Under the pieces are notes generated by a model. That model was given only the letters and a program-made list of their open reading frames with translations, searched no databases and was not told the DNA's origin. This document shows positions 2,882 to 46,871 of a stretch of 64,000 nucleotides of DNA, in pieces (position 1 is the first letter of the stretch; each line of letters opens with the position of its first letter). This stretch comes from a candidate division WWE3 bacterium (GTDB lineage Bacteria; Patescibacteriota; WWE3; 2-01-FULL-39-13), in contig CALRDH010000001.1 of assembly GCA_943354835.1 (NCBI GenBank), forward strand, positions 255,298-319,297, read 5' to 3'. The position numbers were made by a program, and so were the translations under genes.

Positions 2882-4090
2882 GTGAAATACACTTTTCCAA
2901 AGGATTTTGCTTGGGGAACCGCAACTTCAGCTCATCAAATAGAAGGAAATAATATTAATTCTGACTGGTGGGAATGGGAAGACTCAAAGAAATATTTCCC
3001 CCAAAGAGAGTTTCCTTTGGAGTCATCTGGTATAGCTTGCGATTCATATAATAGATACGAAGAAGATTTTGATTTATGCGTTGATTTAAACAATAATGCT
3101 GTAAGGATTTCCGTTGAATGGGCAAGAATAGAACCGACGCAAGGAAATTTTGACGAAAAGGAAATTGCGCATTATAAAAAGGTATTAAAATCAGCAAGAT
3201 CTCGTGGTTTGAAAACTTTTGTTACTCTTCACCATTTTACAAATCCGATTTGGTTTTCGAATCTCGGTGGATGGACAAATATAAATGCTCCAATTTATTT
3301 TGCAAAATATGCAAAAAAATGTGCAAAAGAATTTAACGATCTAATTGATGTTTATTTAACGATTAACGAACCACAAGTTTATGTCTACATGTCATATTTT
3401 CATGGAATTTGGCCGCCAAATAAAGTAAGCGCTGTTTTATCTTTGTGGGTGCAAATTAATCTAGCAAGAGCGAATAATAAGGCGTATAACGCAATAAAAG
3501 GTAATCATTTTAAAAAAGACGATGCTCCAACGGTAGGAATCGTCAAAAACATTGTTTGGTACGAGGCCTCAAATTCATCGAAAAATCCGCTAGATAAACT
3601 CGTCGCAAGTTTTTTATATTTTATTGGCGGCGATTTTTTCTTCCTTATGATTAGAAATAAATTTGACATAATTGGCCTAAATTACTATTTTACTAATCGT
3701 ATAAATAATCTAAAAACAAAAAACCCAGATGATGTTGTAAATGATTTAGGTTGGTGGATTTATCCGAAAGGACTTTACAATGTTCTTTTATCGCTTAAGA
3801 AATACAATGTTGAAATCTATATAACCGAAAATGGCCTTGCCGATGAGAAGGATGAAAAAAGAATACCTTTTATTCGAGACATGTTGGAATCTTGTGCGAA
3901 AGCCATAGATAAAGGAGTCAATTTGAAAGGCTATTTTCATTGGTCGCTTTTGGATAACTACGAGTGGCACCATGGATTTTGGCCATGCTTTGGTTTAGTA
4001 AAGGTCGATAGGGAAACTTTAAAAAGAAGTAAGCGTCCATCTTTTAAATATTATTCAGAAATTTGTAAAACTAGCGAATTAAAACTGTAG
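2882..4090 (+). CDS. Glycoside hydrolase family 1 beta-glucosidase
   Basis: GH1 catalytic motifs TINEP (acid/base) and ITENG (nucleophile). W-rich GH1 signature. Starts with GTG. Confidence 0.85.
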   Translation: MKYTFPKDFAWGTATSAHQIEGNNINSDWWEWEDSKKYFPQREFPLESSGIACDSYNRYEEDFDLCVDLNNNAVRISVEWARIEPTQGNFDEKEIAHYKKVLKSARSRGLKTFVTLHHFTNPIWFSNLGGWTNINAPIYFAKYAKKCAKEFNDLIDVYLTINEPQVYVYMSYFHGIWPPNKVSAVLSLWVQINLARANNKAYNAIKGNHFKKDDAPTVGIVKNIVWYEASNSSKNPLDKLVASFLYFIGGDFFFLMIRNKFDIIGLNYYFTNRINNLKTKNPDDVVNDLGWWIYPKGLYNVLLSLKKYNVEIYITENGLADEKDEKRIPFIRDMLESCAKAIDKGVNLKGYFHWSLLDNYEWHHGFWPCFGLVKVDRETLKRSKRPSFKYYSEICKTSELKL

Positions 4091-15457: not shown

Positions 15458-17340
15458 TGGATTTATTAAAGGAGTTAAACCAGGAACAAAAAGATGTTGT
15501 GTTGCATGATGGGGGGCCGGCTATGATAATAGCCGGCCCAGGTAGCGGTAAAACAAGAGCTTTAACTCATAAGATTGCTTATTTGATTCAAGATAAAGGT
15601 TTAAGTCCAGATCAAATTTTGGCTGTCACTTTTACGAATAAAGCCGCAAAAGAAATGAAACAAAGAGTAGAAAGTTTGCTCAAAGACACAGGTCTTAGTG
15701 CTCCTTCATGGATTGGAACTTTTCATGCAATTTGTGTCCGAATATTGCGTATCGAAGGCACTTCCTTAGATTTAGCTCCTGATTTTGTTATTTATGATAC
15801 AGATGATTCATTAAAAATTATAAAAGAAGTCATGGATGAAATAGGCGATTCTATGAGCGATTTAGCTCCAAAAGCAGTTTTGTCCTCAATTTCTAGAGCA
15901 AAAAATGAACTTATCGATCCAAAGGAGTATACAAAGCAATCAGGGGGAAATTATTTTTTTGATCGCGTAAGCAAGATTTATCCCAAGTATCAAGACCGGT
16001 TAAAAGATAACCATGCTTTGGACTTTGATGACATATTATTCGCGGTAGTAAAGCTTTTTCATGGTAACCCAAATGTACTCGAAAAGTATCAAAAAAAGTT
16101 TTTGCAGGTCCTCGTTGATGAGTATCAGGACACTAATCGAGTACAGTATAGCCTAGTAAAAATGATTGCAAAGACGCATAGGAACATAACTGTCGTCGGC
16201 GATGTTTCTCAATCCATCTATTCATGGAGAGGGGCTGACTATAGAAACATGCTTCAGTTCGAAAAAGATTATCCTGGGGCAAAGGTTTATAAACTTGAAA
16301 AAAATTATAGATCGACGAAAAACATTCTTCTTGCGGCAAAAACTCTAATTGAGAATAATTCAACGCATATTTCTATTGATCTTTATACTGATAATCCAAC
16401 TGGCGAGAAGGTCTATTTGTATGAAGCAGAGCATGAAAAGTCTGAAGCAGGTTATGTAGCGGATACAATTGCAATGAGTTTTGCTTCAAGTACTAGCCAT
16501 AGTCCTGAATATTTATCGAAGTCGTCATACAGTGACTGTGCTGTTTTATATAGAACAAATGCTCAATCAAGAGCTATCGAGGAATCATTTATTTCAGCTG
16601 GAATTCCGTACAGAATAGTTGGCGGTGTTAGATTCTATGATAGAAGAGAAATTAAGGATGCATTGGCTTATTTAAGAGTTTTTCAAAATCCAAGAGATAC
16701 GGTTTCTTGGGATAGGTGCGTGAATACTCCAGCAAGAGGAATCGGCAAAAAGGGAATGGAAAGGATCAAGGAGTCTAGTTATGATGTTTCTTTAATAGAG
16801 GAATTAACTCACCTAGATTGGAATAAGTATATAAATGTAGCTTCAGAAAATGCTCCAATTGTTCTTATAGATGCAGTTTTAAAATATTTTAATTATCTAG
16901 AATATCTAAATGATGGCACTGAAGAAAGTCTTTCTCGTATAGAAAATATAAAAGAGCTTCGTACAGTTGCCGGCCAATTTTCTAGTCTTTCTGAATTTTT
17001 AGAAAGCGTTGCTTTGGTCGAGTCTTCGAACAGGGCATTGGATGCTGTTTCAGATGCAGTTACTTTAATGACTCTTCATTCAGCAAAAGGTCTCGAATTT
17101 GATAATGTCTTTATAGTAGGAATGGAAGAAGGCATTTTTCCTCATTCAAGGGCTATGACTGATCCAAAAGAGTTAGAAGAGGAACGCAGACTTTGTTATG
17201 TTGGCATAACAAGAGCAAAGAAAACCCTTTATTTAACGTATACAAGAAGACGAACTTTATATGGTCAATCAGGCACTTCAATTGTCTCAAGATTTATAGC
17301 AGAATTGCCTGAACATGTATTGAAATTCAGTTTTAGTTGA
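15457..17340 (+). CDS. pcrA: UvrD/PcrA/Rep-family ATP-dependent DNA helicase
   Basis: Motif I AGPGSGKT, Ia TFTNKAA, II VLVDEYQDTN, III QSIYSWRGA, IV YRST, V/VI LHSAKGLEF…VGITRAK. Confidence 0.85.
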   Translation: MDLLKELNQEQKDVVLHDGGPAMIIAGPGSGKTRALTHKIAYLIQDKGLSPDQILAVTFTNKAAKEMKQRVESLLKDTGLSAPSWIGTFHAICVRILRIEGTSLDLAPDFVIYDTDDSLKIIKEVMDEIGDSMSDLAPKAVLSSISRAKNELIDPKEYTKQSGGNYFFDRVSKIYPKYQDRLKDNHALDFDDILFAVVKLFHGNPNVLEKYQKKFLQVLVDEYQDTNRVQYSLVKMIAKTHRNITVVGDVSQSIYSWRGADYRNMLQFEKDYPGAKVYKLEKNYRSTKNILLAAKTLIENNSTHISIDLYTDNPTGEKVYLYEAEHEKSEAGYVADTIAMSFASSTSHSPEYLSKSSYSDCAVLYRTNAQSRAIEESFISAGIPYRIVGGVRFYDRREIKDALAYLRVFQNPRDTVSWDRCVNTPARGIGKKGMERIKESSYDVSLIEELTHLDWNKYINVASENAPIVLIDAVLKYFNYLEYLNDGTEESLSRIENIKELRTVAGQFSSLSEFLESVALVESSNRALDAVSDAVTLMTLHSAKGLEFDNVFIVGMEEGIFPHSRAMTDPKELEEERRLCYVGITRAKKTLYLTYTRRRTLYGQSGTSIVSRFIAELPEHVLKFSFS

Positions 17341-26065: not shown

Positions 26066-26263
26066 ATGGAAAACTACGATGAATTCAGTGAAACCAGCAG
26101 AAGTAGCATGCTGGCTTCTATACGCTCCTCTGTGATTTTGATAGCTGGAGTAGGCCTTTTTATACTTTTGGTTTTTGTTTTTATCAACATGGTCACGTCG
26201 TGGTCACAAAAACTTGGAACTAATGTTCCTTCCGATCCTGCGGTTTCTTCGGTTGCAAAGTAA
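26066..26263 (+). CDS. Small membrane protein, hypothetical
   Basis: 65-aa ORF with one TM helix. Weak. Confidence 0.25.
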   Translation: MENYDEFSETSRSSMLASIRSSVILIAGVGLFILLVFVFINMVTSWSQKLGTNVPSDPAVSSVAK

Positions 26264-26281: not shown

Positions 26282-26310
26282 TTTGACAATGTACGTTTGT
26301 TTTTATAGAA
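26282..26310 (+). promoter_or_regulatory. Sigma-70-type promoter (TTGACA, 17 nt, TAGAAT) driving the leader RNA
   Basis: Near-consensus -35 and -10 hexamers with 17-nt spacer. Confidence 0.55.
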
Positions 26311-26319
26311 TCTCCCTTG

Positions 26320-26650
26320 TTTGATAAAGCGTTAATGAAGGAATAGTACATTTGGTTTGTTATCTTTAGCGAAAAGGGGACGGTGTAAGCCCTTGATAAT
26401 ATCCACTTGGAACACGCCTTCGAGCCTAATTTATTTAGCGCGCAGTTAAGAGAAAAGCATTTGCAAAATGCATAATCTTAAACGGAAGCAAACCGTAAAA
26501 TATAGCACCCAGTGTCGGTAAGTTTTTTACCAGAGCCGGGATAAAGTGCCATTTCGCATAAAGCGATTTGGAACAGAGATGGGACCGCGAAGACTTTTTA
26601 TTAAGCCCTCGTTCTCTGATTAAGTAATTAATTAGAGACGAGGGCTTTTT
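26320..26650 (+). ncRNA. Probable T-box riboswitch leader (tRNA-sensing antiterminator), candidate tRNA-His specificity
   Basis: T-box-like core AGAGAUGGGACCGCGAAG at 26574-26591. Antiterminator reconstruction: A1 GAGA(26575-78)/UCUC(26611-14), 7-nt bulge UGGGACC, A2 GCGA(26586-89)/UCGU(26607-10). Competing terminator 26601-26650. AGAGA and hairpin GCAUUUGCAAAAUGC upstream. hisS is in the downstream gene string. Confidence 0.45.
26601..26650 (+). terminator. Rho-independent terminator of the leader (AAGCCCUCGUUCUCU…AGAGACGAGGGCUU plus U6)
   Basis: 14-bp stem with one bulge followed by TTTTTT. Confidence 0.7.
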
Positions 26651-26696
26651 TGTTGGTATAAATCACTTAAAACCCAAAAATCTATGAAAGTTAGCT

Positions 26697-27509
26697 ATGA
26701 GAGGCGGAATAGTTATTGATCGAATACCATATAGTGAAGACTTTGATTTTGTCAGTGAATCAATGTGGTCTAAGCTGCCAGTTATTGATGCTTGTTTGCT
26801 AAACCAACGTATGGAGCAGGCTTATATGTCAGATCAGCCGGTCAATTTCGGTGTAATTTCTTGTATGCCTAATTTGGAGCTTACGTCAACTGGGCCAAGA
26901 GATCTGACATATTCTTATGGTCCATACGGGCTTAAATCAGCAGTTGATTATAAGGCCTCTGAATTAGCAACGTGGAAAAGCTGTGTTTCGTTTGCTTTTA
27001 GTATAGATGTTAATTTAACATGTTTAGTTGCAGATACTGAGGCACGTGTTAAATCTGATGGGCTTTTGTTTCCAAGTACAAAGACCGCAGTATCAAGGGT
27101 TGCTGATAAGGTTGTGAATAGAGTTTCAAAGGTTTTTCCTGGAAACGTCCTTAAAAGGTCTTCTGTATTTCCGGTTTCCGATCCAATTTATCGAAGATAT
27201 TTCAGGCGTACATTTTTGGAAATATATAATGAAATAGTTTTAAATGATCCACTAAATAATCCTAGGGTTACAAGTAGGCTTTCTACAATGCTTGAGTTGG
27301 GATTGGATTATGATTTTGCATATGAGAGATCTTTGAGAGACCTTGCATTACAAGATGCCGAATATGCAATGGAAGGAGCATGGATTGCTTACAGAAGTGG
27401 ATGGACTGGTCTTTTGATAATTGATAATTATCCATTAAGTGCGGCAAAAAGGACATCGCGTTTAGCAGGTATGCCAATTATTTTTCCAGTAAAATATGAC
27501 AAATTTTAA
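26697..27509 (+). CDS. Hypothetical protein, first gene downstream of the T-box-like leader
   Basis: 270-aa ORF with no recognisable motif. Confidence 0.4.
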   Translation: MRGGIVIDRIPYSEDFDFVSESMWSKLPVIDACLLNQRMEQAYMSDQPVNFGVISCMPNLELTSTGPRDLTYSYGPYGLKSAVDYKASELATWKSCVSFAFSIDVNLTCLVADTEARVKSDGLLFPSTKTAVSRVADKVVNRVSKVFPGNVLKRSSVFPVSDPIYRRYFRRTFLEIYNEIVLNDPLNNPRVTSRLSTMLELGLDYDFAYERSLRDLALQDAEYAMEGAWIAYRSGWTGLLIIDNYPLSAAKRTSRLAGMPIIFPVKYDKF

Positions 27510-27984
27510 ATGGACGATATTTAAGATGGAGAGGCAAGAAGACGGTGCATACTTATTTGATTTATCTATTGATGAACGTTGGATCGAAAAACAAAGAAGC
27601 TACCTTATTGCTGAAACGTTTCCCACTTTGATTGTTTTTGCTGATGTTTTTGCGAAATATGTTTATAGGTGTGATTTTCCTATAGATGTGAGAAGTGAGT
27701 ATCTAAATTCAATTAAGAAACCATTACAAGCGAATAAGAATTTGATTGATGTATGTTTCGAGTCGGATTTAATTAATGATGTTTGGAGCATATCTGATTT
27801 CATTCGCGCATGTGATTCCGAAACATTCAAACAAGATGAAATACTTGCAGAATCTATAAAAAGGAAGTCACTGTATAACTACGCAGGTTATCCAATTTCT
27901 TCCAAAGAGCTATTTAATATATCTAAGAAAGCTTTAGCTTGTCTAAACGTAGAGGGATTATTAGAGAAACGATTTAGTGTATAG
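27496..27984 (+). CDS. Hypothetical protein
   Basis: 162-aa ORF overlapping the previous by 14 nt. No motif. Confidence 0.4.
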   Translation: MTNFKWTIFKMERQEDGAYLFDLSIDERWIEKQRSYLIAETFPTLIVFADVFAKYVYRCDFPIDVRSEYLNSIKKPLQANKNLIDVCFESDLINDVWSISDFIRACDSETFKQDEILAESIKRKSLYNYAGYPISSKELFNISKKALACLNVEGLLEKRFSV

Positions 27985-28007
27985 TTATTTAAAAGGTAAC
28001 CATTATT

Positions 28008-29216
28008 ATGACAACAACACAACCATTAAAAGGATTTAGAGATTTTTTGCCAGAGGAAGCATTAAAAAGGCAGTGGCTTAAGTCAAAAATTATCGAGGTT
28101 TTCGAGTCTTGGGGATATGATCCAATCGAGACTCCGACTTTGGAGCCTTTAAGTATTTTTGAGGGGCAAATTGGTGATGATGAAAAGCTCTTTTACAAGT
28201 TTAAAGATGCAGGGGATAGAGATGTTGCTTTAAGATATGATCAGTCGGTTCCAAGTGCTCGGTATGTTGCCGAAAACAAAGATAAGTTAGGGCTTCCATT
28301 TAGAAGATATCAAATCCAACCAGTTTTTAGAGCTGAAAAGCCTCAAAAGGGTAGATATAGGGAATTTATACAGTGCGACGCCGATATATTCGGCGTCGCC
28401 TCAGTCTTAGCCGACGCCGAGGTAATCGCCGTCGGCCTTGATGTGTACAGAAAGCTTGGTTTTAAAAATGCAAAAGTTTTAATAAATGACCGTGCACTGC
28501 TAAAGGAATTTCCATACGCTGCAATTTCCGCAATTGATAAACTCAAGAAAATTGGCGAAGAAGGCGTTATTTCCGAAATGGTTCGCCGTGGAATTCCAGA
28601 ATCAGAAGCTAAGTCGTATTTAGAAAAAATCCAGAACTTAAAACCAAATGATAATGTAAATTTCATTTTGGATTACTTATCTAGGCAGGGATTTGATAAA
28701 TCTTGGTATGAATTTGCTCCAACTATTGCAAGATCATTCTCGTATTCGAGCGGTCCAATTTGGGAGATTGTTATTACTGATTTAGAAAGCGGTTCTGTTT
28801 TAGGTGGCGAACGTTTTGACGGTCTTGTTGAATCGATATCTGGTACAAAAATAGAAGCTACTGGGTTTGGGCTTGGATTTGATAGAACTCTTGAGGCGGC
28901 AGAAGCCCTCGGCCTTGTCCCTGATTTAAAGACTAAAGTTCAAGTATTGGTGACAATATTTAATGAAGATCTGGTGAACAATTCAATAGAGATCTCTAAC
29001 ACACTTCGAGGTTTTGGTCTGAATGTGGAAACATATCCGAACCCAAAAGATAAGTTTGCTAAACAGATTAAATATGCACTTTCAAAAGGCATGAAATGGG
29101 CAGTTGTTTGTGGCCCAGACGAAGCCGAAAAGGGCGTAATCACAATTAAAAACCTGATTCTAAACGAACAAACTGAATGTGATATTAATTCTTCTCGCGA
29201 TTTGTTTTTTAAGTGA
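28008..29216 (+). CDS. hisS: Histidyl-tRNA synthetase
   Basis: N-terminal KGFRDFLPEE, class II motif 2 FRRYQIQPVFRAEKPQKGRYREF, motif 3 …GFGLGFDR, C-terminal anticodon-binding domain. Confidence 0.9.
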   Translation: MTTTQPLKGFRDFLPEEALKRQWLKSKIIEVFESWGYDPIETPTLEPLSIFEGQIGDDEKLFYKFKDAGDRDVALRYDQSVPSARYVAENKDKLGLPFRRYQIQPVFRAEKPQKGRYREFIQCDADIFGVASVLADAEVIAVGLDVYRKLGFKNAKVLINDRALLKEFPYAAISAIDKLKKIGEEGVISEMVRRGIPESEAKSYLEKIQNLKPNDNVNFILDYLSRQGFDKSWYEFAPTIARSFSYSSGPIWEIVITDLESGSVLGGERFDGLVESISGTKIEATGFGLGFDRTLEAAEALGLVPDLKTKVQVLVTIFNEDLVNNSIEISNTLRGFGLNVETYPNPKDKFAKQIKYALSKGMKWAVVCGPDEAEKGVITIKNLILNEQTECDINSSRDLFFK

Positions 29217-40537: not shown

Positions 40538-41990
<1,453 letters not shown>

Positions 41991-42167
41991 AAGGAGATTA
42001 AAAGGAAGGTTTAAAAGCTTTCCAAACTTACGAGAAGCTTAGTCGGCTTTCGTATTTTACAAGGAAAATTTCTCACGATCTTTTCTAGACAGCTTAACAA
42101 CAAGAGGCTTAAAAGTTGTAGACGAGTTCTTTTCACCGCTTAGAGACTGATATATTGCAAAATCCAA

Positions 42168-42193
42168 AAAGAGTCCGAAAAGGCTCTTTTTTT
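42168..42193 (+). terminator. Rho-independent terminator-like hairpin downstream of 16S (AAAGAGUC-CGAAAA-GGCUCUUU plus U-run)
   Basis: 8-bp stem followed by TTTTTTT. Confidence 0.5.
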
Positions 42194-42217
42194 AGTTTTT
42201 GATGTACTGTTTTCGCA

Positions 42218-42745
42218 ATGACTGATTCAAATAAATCAATTAAAATTCCAAAGCTCACAAGATTCCATCAATTATTAGATAAAGCACTTGAACCAGTAAT
42301 GGTGGTATTAGGAGGATTTGATGGCGATTCTCTACAGGAAACCCACGTGTGGCATACAATAAGAATGGACCCGAGTCTTATTGATCTTGATCTTACCGTT
42401 GAGGTTCCTGGATCGGTAAGTGCTAGAGATTATAAAAATAGGTTTGATCCTCGTTTTCATATTCCAGCTATTGATGGTTGGGGTTGGAATGACTATGTTG
42501 TGCTCGCTCCAAAGTTAGAAAATCTAGAGCCTTGGCATATAGGTTGGCATAAAGTTAGAGATAATGAGCTTTTTTTATGTAAATTACATTTAAAACCAGT
42601 TGAAGATTATGCTCTCAAGTTATTAAAAGGGCCCAATAACAGTTCTTTTTTTGCATTCACAAGCGGTGGCAGTCAGATTCCATTAAAATTCCTTGATGAA
42701 GGTCGACATGGTGATAAAAAATATTCAAAATTAAGATTGTTTTAA
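42218..42745 (+). CDS. Hypothetical 175-aa protein encoded in the 16S to tRNA-Ile spacer
   Basis: Clean ORF with ATG. No LAGLIDADG/GIY-YIG/HNH motif and no recognisable family. Confidence 0.45.
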   Translation: MTDSNKSIKIPKLTRFHQLLDKALEPVMVVLGGFDGDSLQETHVWHTIRMDPSLIDLDLTVEVPGSVSARDYKNRFDPRFHIPAIDGWGWNDYVVLAPKLENLEPWHIGWHKVRDNELFLCKLHLKPVEDYALKLLKGPNNSSFFAFTSGGSQIPLKFLDEGRHGDKKYSKLRLF

Positions 42746-42784
42746 TTTTGGTATAATTTCAACGTTCGGTTTGTTAGTACTTCT

Positions 42785-42861
42785 CGGGCGATTAGCTCAG
42801 GTGGTTAGAGCGCTAATCTGATAAGTTAGAGGTCCATGGTTCGAGTCCATGATCGCCCACC
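42785..42861 (+). tRNA. tRNA-Ile (anticodon GAU)
   Basis: Manual cloverleaf: acceptor GGGCGAU/AUCGCCC, anticodon loop CUGAUAA, T-loop UUCGAGU, encoded CCA. Confidence 0.85.
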
Positions 42862-42876
42862 AGTTATACTCCGTAT

Positions 42877-43449
42877 ATGAAAGTTCAAAAGAGATTTTTT
42901 AAATATTGTTTTGTATTCCTTTTAGTGTTCTTTCTTGTAAACATTTTCGCAATTGTTCTTTTTGGACATTTTGATAGGGTTCGGAATGCAGATGTAATAA
43001 TTGTTTTGGGAAATAAGGTTGAGATGGATGGGAAACCTTCTGAAAGGCTTATGTCGCGTCTTGATAAGGCTTTAGAACTTTATAATTCTGGATATTCGTC
43101 CAATATCTTTGTTAGCGGAGGCCTTGGCAAAGAGGGTTATGAAGAAGTCGAAGTTATGGAGCAATTTCTTTTAGAAAATGGAGTTCAAAAGTTACATATC
43201 CATAAAGATTATCTTGGTTTTGACACAGAGCAATCAGGTTTAAATTTAAAATCCTATATGGATGAATTTGGTTATAAATCGGTTATTGTTGTTTCGAATT
43301 TCTATCATATTCCAAGGTCTGTAATGTTCTTCAAAAAGCTTGGAATTAAAGACACCTATAATTCTCATGCAAATTATTATGAGATTAGGGATGCTTATTC
43401 TTTGGTCAGGGAAGTTTTTGCTTTTTATGATTACTTGGTGTTAAGATAA
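42877..43449 (+). CDS. DUF218 (YdcF/SanA/ElyC-like) domain protein
   Basis: N-terminal TM plus DUF218 core DVIIVLGNKVEMDGKPSERLMSRLDKALELY…FVSGG. Confidence 0.65.
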   Translation: MKVQKRFFKYCFVFLLVFFLVNIFAIVLFGHFDRVRNADVIIVLGNKVEMDGKPSERLMSRLDKALELYNSGYSSNIFVSGGLGKEGYEEVEVMEQFLLENGVQKLHIHKDYLGFDTEQSGLNLKSYMDEFGYKSVIVVSNFYHIPRSVMFFKKLGIKDTYNSHANYYEIRDAYSLVREVFAFYDYLVLR

Positions 43450-44052
43450 TTGTTCTATTATCTCTATATGAAAATCGCAAAATCCAATATCTCCGAAATT
43501 TCAGATGCTCTCCTTTCTGGTTCCGTCGGCATTATGCCTAGCGATACTGTTTATGGTTTGTTTGCAATGGCTATGAATTCCAAGTCTGTTGAAAGGATTT
43601 ATTCGATTAAGAAGCGTGATTTGGATAAGCCTTTTATTGTTTTGATTTCTGATATTTCCGATTTGGAGCTGTTTGGAATTAAAGCGTTTGATTATCAGTC
43701 TAGGTTTGTAAATAAATATTGGCCTGGACCTTTAAGCTTGATTTTTGACTGTAAAAATCCGGAATTCGAATATCTCCATCGTGGAACAAATTCTTTAGCT
43801 ATAAGAATGCCTAAAGATGACTGGTTGTTAAATATTCTTCGTAAAACCGGTCCGCTTGTCGCGCCATCTGCAAATCTTCAAGATTCTCCGACAGTAAAAA
43901 ATATAGGTGAGGCGATTGAGATTTTTGATGATGCTGTCGATTTTTATGTTGATGGTGGAGAAATCGTCGGCGAGCCTTCTACTTTAGCAAAATTCAATGG
44001 AGACAAACTTGAGATATTAAGACTTGGGCAGTTAAAAATCGAATATCCTTGA
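43450..44052 (+). CDS. tsaC: L-threonylcarbamoyladenylate synthase (YrdC/Sua5 family)
   Basis: YrdC motifs …MPSDTVYGL…, KKRD.DKPFIVL. Confidence 0.75.
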   Translation: MFYYLYMKIAKSNISEISDALLSGSVGIMPSDTVYGLFAMAMNSKSVERIYSIKKRDLDKPFIVLISDISDLELFGIKAFDYQSRFVNKYWPGPLSLIFDCKNPEFEYLHRGTNSLAIRMPKDDWLLNILRKTGPLVAPSANLQDSPTVKNIGEAIEIFDDAVDFYVDGGEIVGEPSTLAKFNGDKLEILRLGQLKIEYP

Positions 44053-44064
44053 TACAATTGCACT

Positions 44065-44670
44065 ATGATTTCCCTTTCTAAATCCAAAGAGCTTCACTTA
44101 AAAAAACTAGCAAGTCTTGTCGAAGAAAAATCTAAAGTTGTAAACATCACAGCCATTCGTGATTTTGATGGTATTTGGGAAAAGCATGTTTTAGATTCTT
44201 TGGAGTTTTTGAATACAGAGTTTTTTAAAACGCATACTAATGAGAAGTTTACTTATATGGACTTTGGAACTGGGGCTGGATTTCCTGGGCTTCCTTTGGC
44301 CATAATGCTTCCTGATTCAAAGTTTTCACTTGTAGATGGAACTAGAAAGAAAGTTGAAATCGTTAATGCGTTTGCAAATGAATTAGGTTTAAGTAATGTT
44401 CAAACAATTTGGTCAAGAGCAGAAGACCTTGATCGTAAGTTTGAAATTGTATTGGCAAGGGCAGTGAAATATTTGCCTGAACTTTTAAAAACTGCTGTTG
44501 AATTTGTTTCTAAAGATGGGTACATCGTTGCATACAAAATGTTAAATGATGAAGAAATAAAAGCCGGAGACGACGTTTGTGGGGAGATTTCACTTGTTAA
44601 GGTTGAAGAATATAGATATTCGTTAAGCGGTCAAGATCGTGTGATTTTGATATACCAGAAAAAATCCTAG
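44065..44670 (+). CDS. rsmG: 16S rRNA (guanine527-N7)-methyltransferase
   Basis: GidB/RsmG motifs DFGTGAGFPGLPLAI, SLVDGTRKKVE. Confidence 0.8.
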   Translation: MISLSKSKELHLKKLASLVEEKSKVVNITAIRDFDGIWEKHVLDSLEFLNTEFFKTHTNEKFTYMDFGTGAGFPGLPLAIMLPDSKFSLVDGTRKKVEIVNAFANELGLSNVQTIWSRAEDLDRKFEIVLARAVKYLPELLKTAVEFVSKDGYIVAYKMLNDEEIKAGDDVCGEISLVKVEEYRYSLSGQDRVILIYQKKS

Positions 44671-44689
44671 AAATGATAGAATCGGTTTA

Positions 44690-45706
44690 ATGCCTGTAAT
44701 TGATAAATATCTTTCATATATTTTCGAAAATGGATTTAGTGATCTTCATATTATTCCGGATGTTCATATAATCGGCCGGATTGATGGTGATTTGGTAAAA
44801 ATATCAGAAGATAAATATACCAATGCGGATTTGGAAAAGGTTTTATTTGAAATTATTCCGCAAGGCGATAAAGATTATCTTAACAAACACTTTAATCTAG
44901 ATTTTTCATATGAGGTTCCAGGTGTTTCAAGGTACAGGGCAAATTATTATTGGCATAATGGTGGAATCGGCGCGACTTTTAGAGTAATTCCTAAAAAAAT
45001 ACCAACAATATCAGAACTTGGTTTATCAGAGGCTTCGCTTAGAACAACTCAATTTAAAAACGGCTTAGTTTTAATAACAGGACCGACTGGTTCAGGAAAA
45101 ACTTCTACAATGGCTGCGCTTTTAAATTACATAAACATAAATAGACCTGCTCACATTATTACGATCGAAGATCCAATTGAATTTGTTCACCAAAATGACA
45201 AATTAGGTCTGGTCAGTCAAAGAGAACTTGGAAAGCACACAAAAAGCTTTTCAAGCGCGCTAAGAGCAGCCTTAAGAGAAGATCCAAACGTAATAATGAT
45301 TGGCGAAATGCGAGATATGGAAACAATAGAGTTGGCTATCACAGCAGCTGAAACCGGACATTTAGTTTTTGCATCGCTTCATACTAATTCAGTTGCAAAA
45401 ACCGTTGATCGTTTAGTCGATGTATTTCCAAACGAAAGCAAAGGCGAAGTTAGGGCTTTGCTTGCTGATACGTTAAGAGCAGTTTTATCTCAAACACTTG
45501 TTAAACGTGCAGATGGAAAAGGCAGAATTCCAGTTCAAGAGATTATGTTTGTAAATCATGCAATTTCAAATTTAATTAGGGAAGGTAAATCTTTCCAAAT
45601 CGATGATGTTATACAAACAAGTATGAAAGACGGAATGCTTTTAATGTCTAATGAAATGCAAAGATTAACAAAAGAAGGCAAGATCGGCGTAGAAAAAATA
45701 GCTTAA
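44690..45706 (+). CDS. pilT: Type IV pilus retraction ATPase
   Basis: Walker A GPTGSGKTST, Asp box EDPIEF, Walker B/His box IGEMRDMETI…ETGHLVFASLHTNS. Confidence 0.8.
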   Translation: MPVIDKYLSYIFENGFSDLHIIPDVHIIGRIDGDLVKISEDKYTNADLEKVLFEIIPQGDKDYLNKHFNLDFSYEVPGVSRYRANYYWHNGGIGATFRVIPKKIPTISELGLSEASLRTTQFKNGLVLITGPTGSGKTSTMAALLNYININRPAHIITIEDPIEFVHQNDKLGLVSQRELGKHTKSFSSALRAALREDPNVIMIGEMRDMETIELAITAAETGHLVFASLHTNSVAKTVDRLVDVFPNESKGEVRALLADTLRAVLSQTLVKRADGKGRIPVQEIMFVNHAISNLIREGKSFQIDDVIQTSMKDGMLLMSNEMQRLTKEGKIGVEKIA

Positions 45707-45710
45707 CCTT

Positions 45711-46601
45711 TTAATTTATTTTTGATTTAAGATACTCTTTGAATTTCTGATTATATTCTGGATTTTCGAGCGCTAAGTCTATTGATGTTTGAAGATAATT
45801 GATAGGATCTCCAGTAGTTTTCCATTCTCCGCTTATTGGTTTTACGAGTACTGTTTTTTCTTTTGCCATTCTGTGGATAGCATCTACCATCCAAAGCTCA
45901 CTATCTTTTCCAAGATTTGATGGCGTCGGTTCTAGGTAATTGAAGATTTCTGGTCGTAAAAGATATCCGCTAAAGCTAACTAGGCTTGAAGGGGATTCTT
46001 CTTTTGATGGTTTTTCGATTATGTAATCAAGAACATTTTCAGTTCCTTCTTTTATTTTGATCATTCCATATTTTGTCACGTCGATATTTGGAAGATCTTG
46101 TGCTGGGATTACGCCGTATACATCATCACCGCTGTTTTCGTAGACTTCTATCATTTCTGTTACTCGGGATTTTCCGAAAACCAAATCGTCTGTGTAAATA
46201 TAAACGAATGGTTCGTTTCCAATGTATGGTCTTGCAGAAATTGCAGGTGAGCCATTTCCATATGGAAGATTATTATCTTGTGTAATGACGATTATATTTG
46301 GAAGGCTGAATACTTGGCTAACTTTTCTAAATCTTTCTTCTTTTCCTTGCTTTTGAAGCTGTTGGTAAATATGTTGAACTGTATTGTGAAAATAATCTTC
46401 ATAAATGGATTGTCCTTCTTTTGTTGCGACAATTATGATTTCAGTTATTCCTGCGACCATGCATTCTTCGACAATATAATGCGTAATCGGTTTATCTAAA
46501 ATCGGAATCATTGACTTTGGAAGAGTTTTTGTAATAGGCAAGAATCTTGTTGCGTAACCTGCGTCTGTTAAAACAGCTTTTCTGACTTTTTGTTTTTCCA
46601 T
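45711..46601 (-). CDS. galU: UTP--glucose-1-phosphate uridylyltransferase
   Basis: N-terminal KAVLTDAGYATRFLPITKTLPKSMIPI and sugar-binding region. Confidence 0.8.
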   Translation of the reverse strand: MEKQKVRKAVLTDAGYATRFLPITKTLPKSMIPILDKPITHYIVEECMVAGITEIIIVATKEGQSIYEDYFHNTVQHIYQQLQKQGKEERFRKVSQVFSLPNIIVITQDNNLPYGNGSPAISARPYIGNEPFVYIYTDDLVFGKSRVTEMIEVYENSGDDVYGVIPAQDLPNIDVTKYGMIKIKEGTENVLDYIIEKPSKEESPSSLVSFSGYLLRPEIFNYLEPTPSNLGKDSELWMVDAIHRMAKEKTVLVKPISGEWKTTGDPINYLQTSIDLALENPEYNQKFKEYLKSKIN

Positions 46602-46795
46602 TGAGTCGAAATATACAGCGAACTTTATACTGGTGTCAATTAGTTGGAAAATAGTTGATGCTGTCTATTGTAAATTCGTTTTTGCTGTAGTATATTTTCG
46701 TCCATACAGTTAACGTTGTTGATCAACCTCTTAACATTCCGTATTATATATATCGTAAGGCCAAGAAAGGCTTTAGAAAAAGCCGGCAGAATTTT

Positions 46796-46871
46796 GGGCC
46801 GGTAGCTCAGCTGGTAGAGCGCTACATTTGCAATGTAGAGGTCATGGGTTCGAATCCCATTCGGTCCACCA
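46796..46871 (+). tRNA. tRNA-Ala (anticodon UGC)
   Basis: Manual cloverleaf with diagnostic G3:U70 pair, anticodon loop UUUGCAA, encoded CCA. Confidence 0.9.

Follow-up and report, generated by a model that had tools for sequence, protein, structure and literature searches.

In a genome of the candidate phyla radiation (CPR), does an untranslated RNA placed ahead of a gene string that includes hisS act as a T-box riboswitch, and which genes would it govern? The question is raised by a stretch of 64,000 nucleotides (nt) of contig CALRDH010000001.1 (assembly GCA_943354835.1), the whole of which is called the window below. The element in question, located at 26283–26651 of the forward strand, is very probably a transcriptional T-box riboswitch specific for tRNA-His. 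This reading is adopted because of the anatomy of the leader, its full-length match to the T-box family, the logic of codon and discriminator, the covariation among related leaders, and the gene context. An earlier note, made from the letters of this DNA, had already pointed to such a leader and had taken the genome to be CPR-like, in agreement with the closest genomes, which belong to Patescibacteria/WWE3. The histidyl-tRNA synthetase (HisRS) encoded here has close relatives only in metagenome-assembled genomes of Patescibacteria/CPR, and the genome that matches best is a candidate division WWE3 assembly (83% identity).

Identification of the leader

The leader is preceded by a sigma-70-type promoter, TTGACA-17-TAGAAT (26283–26311, + strand), for which the promoter scan counts 11 of 12 consensus matches. 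A promoter of the form TTGACA-17-TAnAAT occupies the same place in four diverged leaders, with a spacer of varying sequence. No long open reading frame (ORF) is present before the ATG of the first gene, ORF1, at 26697, and the RNA of ~334 nt ends in an intrinsic terminator (26605–26651, −26.6 kcal/mol and six U residues). These features lie within 1–5 nt of the positions at which the earlier note had placed a near-consensus promoter (26282–26310), an untranslated RNA of ~330 nt, and a strong intrinsic terminator (26601–26650). The fold of the leader is more stable than those of 100 out of 100 shuffled sequences (z = −4.3).

When Rfam is scanned at a permissive threshold, the T-box family RF00230 matches residues 26323–26619 with a score of 69.4 bits over model positions 1–219, that is, from end to end, the E-value being 4.7e-15 locally and 5.8e-13 when the whole window is counted; at the curated thresholds, the scan reports nothing at the leader. 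This match is the sole T-box in the window. No other Rfam family covers the whole leader, and RNase P RNA, tmRNA, and SRP RNA, any of which the earlier note had considered capable of refuting its proposal, are not among the Rfam matches.

Antiterminator, terminator, and covariation

The T-box motif AGAGAUGGGACCGCGAAG is found at 26575–92. The antiterminator that it can form starts with helix A1, in which AGAGA (26575–79) pairs with UCUCU (26613–17), continues with the 7-nt bulge UGGGACC (26580–86), and is completed by helix A2, in which GCGA (26587–90) pairs with UCGU (26609–12), with a wobble pair G26587–U26612 at its base. The 3′ halves of both helices belong to the same strand as the 5′ arm of the terminator, as had been proposed from the sequence. 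The terminator was found by folding, and a simple terminator scan of the region did not call it. The energies of the two structures, −7.5 kcal/mol for the antiterminator versus −26.6 kcal/mol for the terminator, are within the distributions given by TBDB (−7.4 ± 4.2 and −19.5 ± 7.9 kcal/mol, respectively). On the isolated antiterminator segment, RNAfold prefers, over A1, a pairing of the bulge residues GGGA with the UCUC/UCCU strand; it was rejected as the functional pairing because A1 covaries by strict Watson–Crick swaps, whereas the alternative survives only via G–U wobbles.

Related leaders were sought in 80 CPR hisS loci (designated here by L numbers), a sample that is biased in having been found through hisS, as well as in the contigs of ORF1 and HisRS relatives. 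A pattern search located the motif UGGGACCGCG upstream of hisS in 9 of the 80 loci, and a covariance model of the discriminator domain (R1) returned exactly the same nine leaders and none extra; thus, approximately one-ninth of the sampled CPR hisS loci carry such a leader within 4 kb. The contigs of relatives yielded L201, L209, and L211, the last of which is identical to L001, as well as three truncated leaders (L204–206). Codon CAC and UGGG are kept in all 14 full leaders from CPR genomes, including that of the window. The Rfam scores of the three CPR leaders detected are 69.4, 64.2, and 44.3 bits, with no report for the other short-Stem-I leaders scanned. A metagenome scan with the pattern GGAACACGN{140,170}ATGGGACCGCG proved too loose, yielding 120 chance matches in GC-rich coding DNA (L081–L200) and no T-box.

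The main alignment used for covariation was fitted to the model and includes 10 discriminator domains. Its paired cells amount to 91.4%, compared with 72.8% in shuffles, none of 500 of which reach that value, and with 43–57% when the 3′ partners are slid. Two-sided changes are present in all nine pairs of Stem III, in three of the five pairs of A1, and in two of the eight pairs of A2. Helix A1 is paired throughout (100%), as AGAGA/UCUCU, AAGGA/UCCUU, or AAGAA/UUCUU in each sequence, and A2 is 92.5% paired, the G–U pair at the base of the latter being invariant (10/10 leaders). The same discriminator pairs hold on a structure-blind MAFFT alignment. Terminators of −20 to −36 kcal/mol with at least six U residues follow in each of the 10 leaders examined, and their 5′ arm is the strand that supplies the 3′ halves of A2 and A1. 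Since this shared strand varies in step with both of its partners, the antiterminator and the terminator are both conserved and mutually exclusive; the compensatory changes in homologous loci thus bear out both the antiterminator and the competition between the two structures that the earlier note had put forward. Among the four leaders with a long Stem I, both partners have changed in 14 of the 88 predicted pairs, including pairs in the base and distal helices of Stem I, in Stem II, in the extra stem, and in Stem III.

Recognition of tRNA-His and the proposed mechanism

A specifier codon CAC or CAU had been expected in Stem I, and CAC is present there, at 26413–26415. Likewise, the G residue of the bulge had been taken to predict C73 of tRNA-His, and C73 is found in the tRNA-His genes of two CPR relatives, L013 and L021. 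In these loci, a tRNA-His(GUG) gene (L013:407–480 and L021:3372–3446) directly follows the terminator of the leader and precedes hisS, and both genes encode G-1, C73, and CCA; the UGGG sequence therefore fits the acceptor end and CAC fits the anticodon. The only sigma-70-like promoter near these tRNA genes is the one before the leader (12/12 and 11/12 matches), so that the T-box of L013 and L021 would control the synthesis of its own ligand. No described case of a T-box that controls the gene for its own tRNA ligand is known to us, no literature search having been aimed at one.

We infer the tRNA contacts and the actual switching of the leader. Transcription would start from the promoter at 26283–26311, and the specifier loop of the long Stem I would show CAC to the GUG anticodon of tRNA-His, with the AG bulge and the distal loop (26365–94) positioned to stack on the tRNA elbow, a probable contact. 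The 3′ end of uncharged tRNA-His, C73-C-C-A, would pair with U-G-G-G of the bulge (26580–83) and stabilize the antiterminator. The shared strand 26605–17 would thereby be kept from the terminator, allowing RNA polymerase to read through into ORF1, ORF2, and hisS, and probably into genes beyond hisS. With tRNA-His charged or absent, the more stable terminator (26605–45 and the six U residues) would form and transcription would stop near 26651.

Structural elements of the leader

The coordinates of the individual elements are listed in Table 1. The base helix of Stem I consists of UGAAGG (26336–41) and CCUUCG (26417–22), and its upper helices lie within 26349–26364 and 26395–26409; both the base and the distal helices carry two-sided changes among the four leaders with a long Stem I. 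The context of the specifier, AGUA on one side and GAA-CAC-G on the other, located directly above the base helix, is canonical, and the helices that flank it covary. The AG bulge and the distal loop align to the Rfam consensus AGAGA...GGUGaaA, with AGCGA and GUG-AAG conserved in the four leaders, and these distal elements presumably form the platform for the tRNA elbow (IDTM).

In Stem II, two base pairs covary when compared with the relatives (UA to GC and UA to CG). The IIB pseudoknot pairing grows from two base pairs (GC/GC) in the window to three in L201 and L209 and to four or five covarying pairs in the relatives with a short Stem I. Stem II and the IIA/B pseudoknot are an optional module of T-boxes. 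The purines before Stem III and the AA that follows it correspond to the RRRxG-stem-AA motif described for T-boxes (Zhang 2020 review, PMC7583486).

An additional pairing appears in the consensus fold of all four long-Stem-I leaders, between the 5′ end of the leader (26322–26333, UGAUAAAGCGUU) and the U-rich loop of A2 (26592–26603). Both strands are conserved, with no covariation for or against the pairing, which could be either a contact of the OFF state or an AU-rich artefact.

Table 1. Predicted elements of the leader and the genes that follow it, in window coordinates.
Feature	Position	Strand	Remarks
T-box leader RNA (very probable)	26318–26651	+	~334 nt; start inferred from the −10 box, end at the U-run of the terminator
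Stem I, long	26336–26422	+	consensus fold of four leaders and minimum free energy fold
Specifier loop, 5′ side	26342–26348	+	AAUAGUA (AGUA half of the S-turn); invariant in four leaders; aligns with AGUA of the Rfam consensus
Specifier loop, 3′ side	26410–26416	+	GAA-CAC-G; codon CAC (His) at 26413–26415, then conserved purine G26416
Stem I distal elements	26365–26394	+	AG bulge UUUAGCGAA at 26365–73; helix AAGGG/CCCUU; distal loop GACGGUGUAAG at 26379–89
Linker hairpin, small, between Stems I and II	26424–26439	+	GCUCA/UGAGC in relatives; weaker CUAA/UUAG in the window
Stem II	26446–26481	+	UUAAGA/UCUUAA and inner hairpin; purine-rich strand AGAGAAAAG
Stem IIA hairpin	26482–26496	+	ACGG-AAGCAAA-CCGU, then F-box-like CCGUAAAA
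Extra stem between IIA/B and Stem III	26508–26540	+	outside the Rfam consensus; CCC..GGUAA/UUACC..GGG; two pairs covary
Stem III	26549–26571	+	preceded by purines AAGUG (26544–48), followed by AA (26572–73)
Antiterminator	26575–26617	+	A1, 7-nt bulge, A2; covariation
Intrinsic terminator hairpin	26605–26645	+	−26.6 kcal/mol; U-run UUUUUU at 26646–26651
ORF1, 270 aa	26697–27509	+	first gene after the leader; rare family
ORF2, 162 aa	27496–27984	+	overlaps the end of ORF1; always follows ORF1 homologs
Motif TTAGTGTATAGTTAT	27974–27988	+	just upstream of hisS; overlaps the ORF2 stop codon
hisS (histidyl-tRNA synthetase), third gene	28008–29216	+	Pfam tRNA-synt_His PF13393, E = 1.1e-33

Downstream genes and alternative explanations

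The placement of hisS as the third gene, behind two ORFs of no known family, proved correct: PF13393 identifies hisS, ORF1 and ORF2 have no match in Pfam or NCBIfam, and ORF1 has none among the sequences of the PDB. Seven close relatives (81–92% HisRS identity) share the gene order of the window, namely a glycosyltransferase (− strand), a membrane ORF of 64–65 residues, hisS, DUF4870/MamF, and on to PfkB. Only those relatives that have additional ORFs between the small ORF and hisS carry the leader, and the cargo that it precedes is ORF1 and ORF2 in the window and L201, proteins of 423 and 328/290 residues in L001 and L211, and a single 320-residue protein in L209. Profiles of the ORF1 family showed no significant similarity to the remaining cargo proteins (320 residues in L209, 290 and 423 in L211; probability < 3%), and BLASTP gave weak C-terminal matches alone (E = 5e-4 to 0.2); a motif (E/Q)Y-x-x-(E/Q)G, common to the ORF1 family and the other cargo, was not relied on. 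In other CPR loci, the His T-box leader is followed by HisG-like fragments (L003:2722–3442), by M20 peptidase genes, either with a GNAT gene (L013:698–2427) or without it (L027:2858–3982), or by tRNA-His.

The small ORF of the window (26066–26263, + strand, 65 residues with a hydrophobic stretch) stops 20 nt before the promoter of the leader. Several close relatives (L210 and L211, and, by sequence, L201 and L207) have a counterpart of 64–65 residues at the equivalent position.

Several observations weigh against a T-box that controls hisS in the window. The Rfam score of 69.4 bits is below the gathering cut-off of 93. The base of Stem I has no evident kink-turn (K-turn), its UGA (26336–38) and GA (26422–23) being drawn into a plain helix by the consensus fold, and the IIB pseudoknot is weak, with its two base pairs. 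C73 of tRNA-His is normally paired with G-1, so the G of the bulge must compete for it. The window encodes only tRNA-Pro, tRNA-Ile, and tRNA-Ala, and the tRNA-His of this genome is thus located outside it. Finally, the leader is absent in L207/L208, the nearest relative (92% HisRS identity), and in L210, where the gap between the small ORF and hisS is ~77–115 nt, and TTAGTGTATAGTTAT is found 25–60 nt upstream of hisS in all seven close relatives, with or without a leader.

The last two observations suggest the strongest alternative, in which a working His T-box belongs to an accessory cassette inserted before a self-promoted hisS, chiefly controls the cargo genes, and at most boosts hisS. The confinement of the leader to those close relatives that have extra ORFs, the presence of nearly the same leader before three different cargo sets, and the retention of TTAGTGTATAGTTAT in all of them argue for this explanation. 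As hisS and TTAGTGTATAGTTAT are kept in relatives that lack the leader, hisS does not depend on the leader, and the leader travels with the extra genes. On the other hand, the terminator scan finds no + strand terminator between ORF2 and hisS, and the two-hexamer promoter scan does not call TTAGTGTATAGTTAT as a promoter, leaving it a candidate for a resident hisS promoter or another signal. In distant CPR genomes, His T-boxes also precede hisS, separated from it by other genes or by hardly any (with the bias of loci found through hisS), and ORF1, ORF2, and hisS stay together in distant genomes, which suggests one unit rather than a foreign insertion. The cassette explanation is a serious contender, falling only somewhat short of probable. 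The earlier proposal of a T-box over the hisS gene string thus holds insofar as hisS lies downstream with no terminator in between, although, judged by gene order, the leader is tied more tightly to ORF1/ORF2 than to hisS. The unit controlled by the T-box appears to be the ORF1–ORF2 pair together with hisS, not hisS alone, and hisS may be only partly under the control of the leader.

A second explanation regards the leader as the decaying remains of a T-box that has lost its ability to switch and now serves as a constitutive terminator or as a leaky leader. The low Rfam score, the long insertions, the lack of an evident K-turn, the weak IIB pairing, and the loss of the leader from the nearest relative would be in keeping with decay. 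The earlier note had counted the lack of an RF00230 hit above threshold as refuting a T-box, and, read strictly, this rule goes against the leader; RF00230 is the only family that matches the whole leader, with a sub-threshold but highly significant score. The gathering cut-off, however, is an operational rule of annotation and not a structural feature, and membership among T-boxes is claimed here on structural features. The alignment to RF00230 contains insertions of 18 nt after Stem I, of 9 nt in Stem II, and of 35 nt between the IIA/B region and Stem III, and these insertions, rather than any missing T-box features, probably explain the score. The base of Stem I is also different in L001, L201, and L209, where it is AAAGAGG/CCUUUU with no GA motif. 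On the other side, the specifier loop, the AG bulge and distal loop, the purines of Stem III, UGGGACC, the basal G–U pair, the terminator, and the promoter are all intact, and the compensatory changes across four close and 10 wider relatives indicate purifying selection on the structure, not decay, which makes a relic very unlikely.

The weakest alternative, an independent small RNA gene or a riboswitch of another class that resembles a T-box by chance, could draw on the promoter-to-terminator unit of ~334 nt, which might stand alone, and on weak matches to several small RNA and microRNA models, but it is effectively refuted, as those matches cover the terminator hairpin only (E ≥ 0.008) while the T-box match spans the whole model, as the His codon and the bulge that matches C73 agree with each other and with the hisS context, and as the homologous leaders covary as T-boxes.

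Relatives with an ultrashort Stem I

The T-box leaders of CPR fall into two forms. Stem I is long in the window, L001/L211, L201, and L209, and ultrashort in eight other loci (L003, L004, L008, L013, L021, L027, L035, and L041; for example, L021:3014–3241). The ultrashort form is a covarying helix of five base pairs (GCGGA/UCCGC, CUGGA/UCCAG, GUGGA/UCCAC, or UUGGA/UCCAA) that closes an invariant 7-nt loop, GUCACGA, with the specifier. Under this hairpin, most of the short leaders have a K-turn-like UGA/GA base. Stem II follows, and then the IIA/B pseudoknot, in which the pairing between the loop and the downstream strand covaries (GUUG/CAAC, AUUG/CAAU, GCUU/AAGC, and GUCAA/UUGAC). All these leaders end in strong intrinsic terminators with U-runs. 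Transcriptional T-boxes generally need a long Stem I with an elbow-binding motif (review, PMC7583486), and the short-Stem-I leaders of CPR, which lie outside the window, depart from this published requirement as judged by their predicted structures.

The loop of A2 in a number of short leaders (L013:255–272, with equivalents in L003, L008, L021, L035, and L041) starts with GGUCC-UUUUUU, which can pair with GGGACC of the bulge. The resulting hairpin with its U-run could be a pause site or an early terminator that hides the tRNA-binding bulge. At the corresponding position of the window (26595–26599), the U-run (UUUUU) alone is kept.

A conserved protein of ~300 residues is encoded 3′ of hisS in six of the loci with a short Stem I (L004, L013, L021, L027, L035, and L041). 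By its N-terminal sequence, it looks like a membrane protein, resembling EamA by eye.

The ORF1–ORF2–hisS module

The trio of ORF1, ORF2, and hisS also occurs in L202/L203 and in L213, a distant locus, and its being kept together in distant genomes points to one functional unit. No T-box is present in the upstream region of L213. The 238-nt gap there contains instead a promoter, a ribosome-binding site, and an ORF of 19 codons, MNNQTFNNKIVQLHHHRHI (locus positions 3814–3966). A hairpin CCGACA/UGUCGG overlaps the His codons of this ORF, and the terminator that follows, CCGGCAUAUGCCGG with six U residues, has a 5′ arm that can pair with UGUCGG instead. By its sequence features, this element is a textbook His leader-peptide attenuator. 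Since the trio thus stands behind two unrelated sensors of histidine charging, L213 lends independent support to the function of the leader and to a histidine-related role of ORF1 and ORF2. In three other loci, the ORF1 homolog is immediately preceded by a gene of the TrpR family (PF01371; L202:259–564, L203:317–622, and L212:666–971), which may encode a protein regulator of the ORF1 module.

The ORF1 family is very rare: clustering at 90% leaves six proteins, and 15 representatives are found among 1.84 billion. Its conserved motifs are CMP, CLVADTEARVKSDG, RSxVFPVSDxIY, DAEYAMEG, and IIDNYP. The predicted structure of ORF1 resembles the fold of class-Ic aminoacyl-tRNA synthetases (aaRS), cyclodipeptide synthases (CDPS), and isonitrile synthases, with TM-scores of 0.4–0.5. 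Enzymes of the class-Ic aaRS/CDPS kind bind an amino acid or an aminoacyl-tRNA. A CDPS of Parcubacteria uses His-tRNA-His, and the catalytic set of CDPS consists of Ser, Tyr, Glu, and Tyr (PMC7613923). This set is not identifiable in ORF1, where the serine at the equivalent end of the strand is not conserved, while the adjacent Cys56-Met-Pro is kept in every homolog that covers the site. On the strength of the model, a tRNA-dependent enzyme is a lead for ORF1, not an assignment. A Thg1-like tRNA-His guanylyltransferase was considered and set aside, as no Pfam family, Thg1 included, matched ORF1. The structure model of ORF2 was unusable (pLDDT 38).

A broader picture can be sketched from these observations. 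The His T-box, the His leader-peptide attenuator, and possibly a TrpR-like repressor would be interchangeable sensors before ORF1–ORF2–hisS in CPR and related bacteria; ORF1 would be a new enzyme acting on His or His-tRNA-His and working with HisRS; and the CPR family would include the first T-boxes to combine an ultrashort Stem I with transcriptional control, as well as the first that drive the gene of their own ligand. Taken in its entirety, we regard this picture as speculative and rather unlikely.

Other features of the window

The window includes an interrupted rRNA operon (41990–46800), in which the 16S gene is followed by an ORF that has no Pfam match (42218–42745), by tRNA-Ile, and by inserted genes, and then by tRNA-Ala, 23S, and 5S. 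The insert after tRNA-Ile encodes DUF218, Sua5/TsaC, RsmG (GidB), and a PilT/T2SSE-like ATPase on the + strand, as well as a nucleotidyl transferase on the − strand. At 17151–17249 (+), a sub-threshold match to RF03531 (n00280) scores 50.4 bits versus a cut-off of 65.2 (E = 2e-5). RF03531 is a small RNA of C. difficile located within a helicase gene, and the match is probably a conserved coding sequence.

Implications and comparison with known systems

According to TBDB, T-boxes belong to Firmicutes, Actinobacteria, Chloroflexi, and Deinococcus-Thermus, with occurrences elsewhere put down to horizontal transfer; its class II model was searched mainly in Actinobacteria. No paper combining T-boxes with Patescibacteria or the candidate phyla radiation was found in the single library of literature searched. 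The leader of the window would extend T-box regulation to this radiation, whose members have minimal metabolism and scavenge amino acids, and whose T-box leaders are hidden by the curated cut-offs of Rfam. It would also flag ORF1 and ORF2 as part of a histidine or tRNA-His regulon, providing a functional handle on ‘dark matter’ genes of CPR, with the predicted fold of ORF1 pointing to tRNA-dependent chemistry. In addition, the CPR leaders make a natural matched pair, with the same specifier, discriminator domain, and terminator logic but with either a long or an ultrashort Stem I, which lets the need for the elbow platform in fast tRNA capture by transcriptional T-boxes be tested directly.

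Comparison with the class I T-boxes of Firmicutes (RF00230; B. subtilis tyrS and glyQS), made with the list of T-box features in PMC7583486, reveals the same succession of elements in the predicted structure of the window leader: a long Stem I with an S-turn specifier loop, an AG bulge and a distal loop, Stem II, a IIA hairpin with an F-box-like CCGUAA, a purine-flanked Stem III, a UGGNACC bulge with a basal G–U pair, a competing intrinsic terminator, and a gene for an aminoacyl-tRNA synthetase downstream. It differs from them in its host, a member of CPR/Patescibacteria, in its score of 69.4, lower than 93, in having no evident K-turn and a weak IIB, in the inserted 18-nt linker hairpin and the 33-nt extra stem, and in the two genes of unknown function that precede hisS.

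The actinobacterial class II T-boxes of ileS are approached not by the window leader, in which the long Stem I and the intrinsic terminator exclude a class II translational device, but by the eight CPR leaders with a very short Stem I, which is likewise backed by Stem II and the IIA/B pseudoknot. Unlike the ileS T-boxes, however, these short leaders read His (CAC) and not Ile, and they end in intrinsic terminators rather than in Shine–Dalgarno sequestrators.

With the attenuators of enterobacterial his operons, a device of the kind carried by L213, the window leader would share the outcome, as read-through rises when charged tRNA-His is scarce. The means would be different, since in leader-peptide attenuators a stalled ribosome reads the His codons, whereas the RNA of the window, which has no leader-peptide ORF of that kind, would bind the tRNA directly. 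As for ORF1, no match to CDPS or class-Ic aaRS is found at the level of sequence in Pfam, NCBIfam, or the PDB, and the likeness is that of a predicted fold at the TM-scores given above. On the features compared, the leader of the window belongs with the class I transcriptional T-boxes, lacks none of their core features, and has an ordinary predicted mechanism, in a host group that is new as far as checked.

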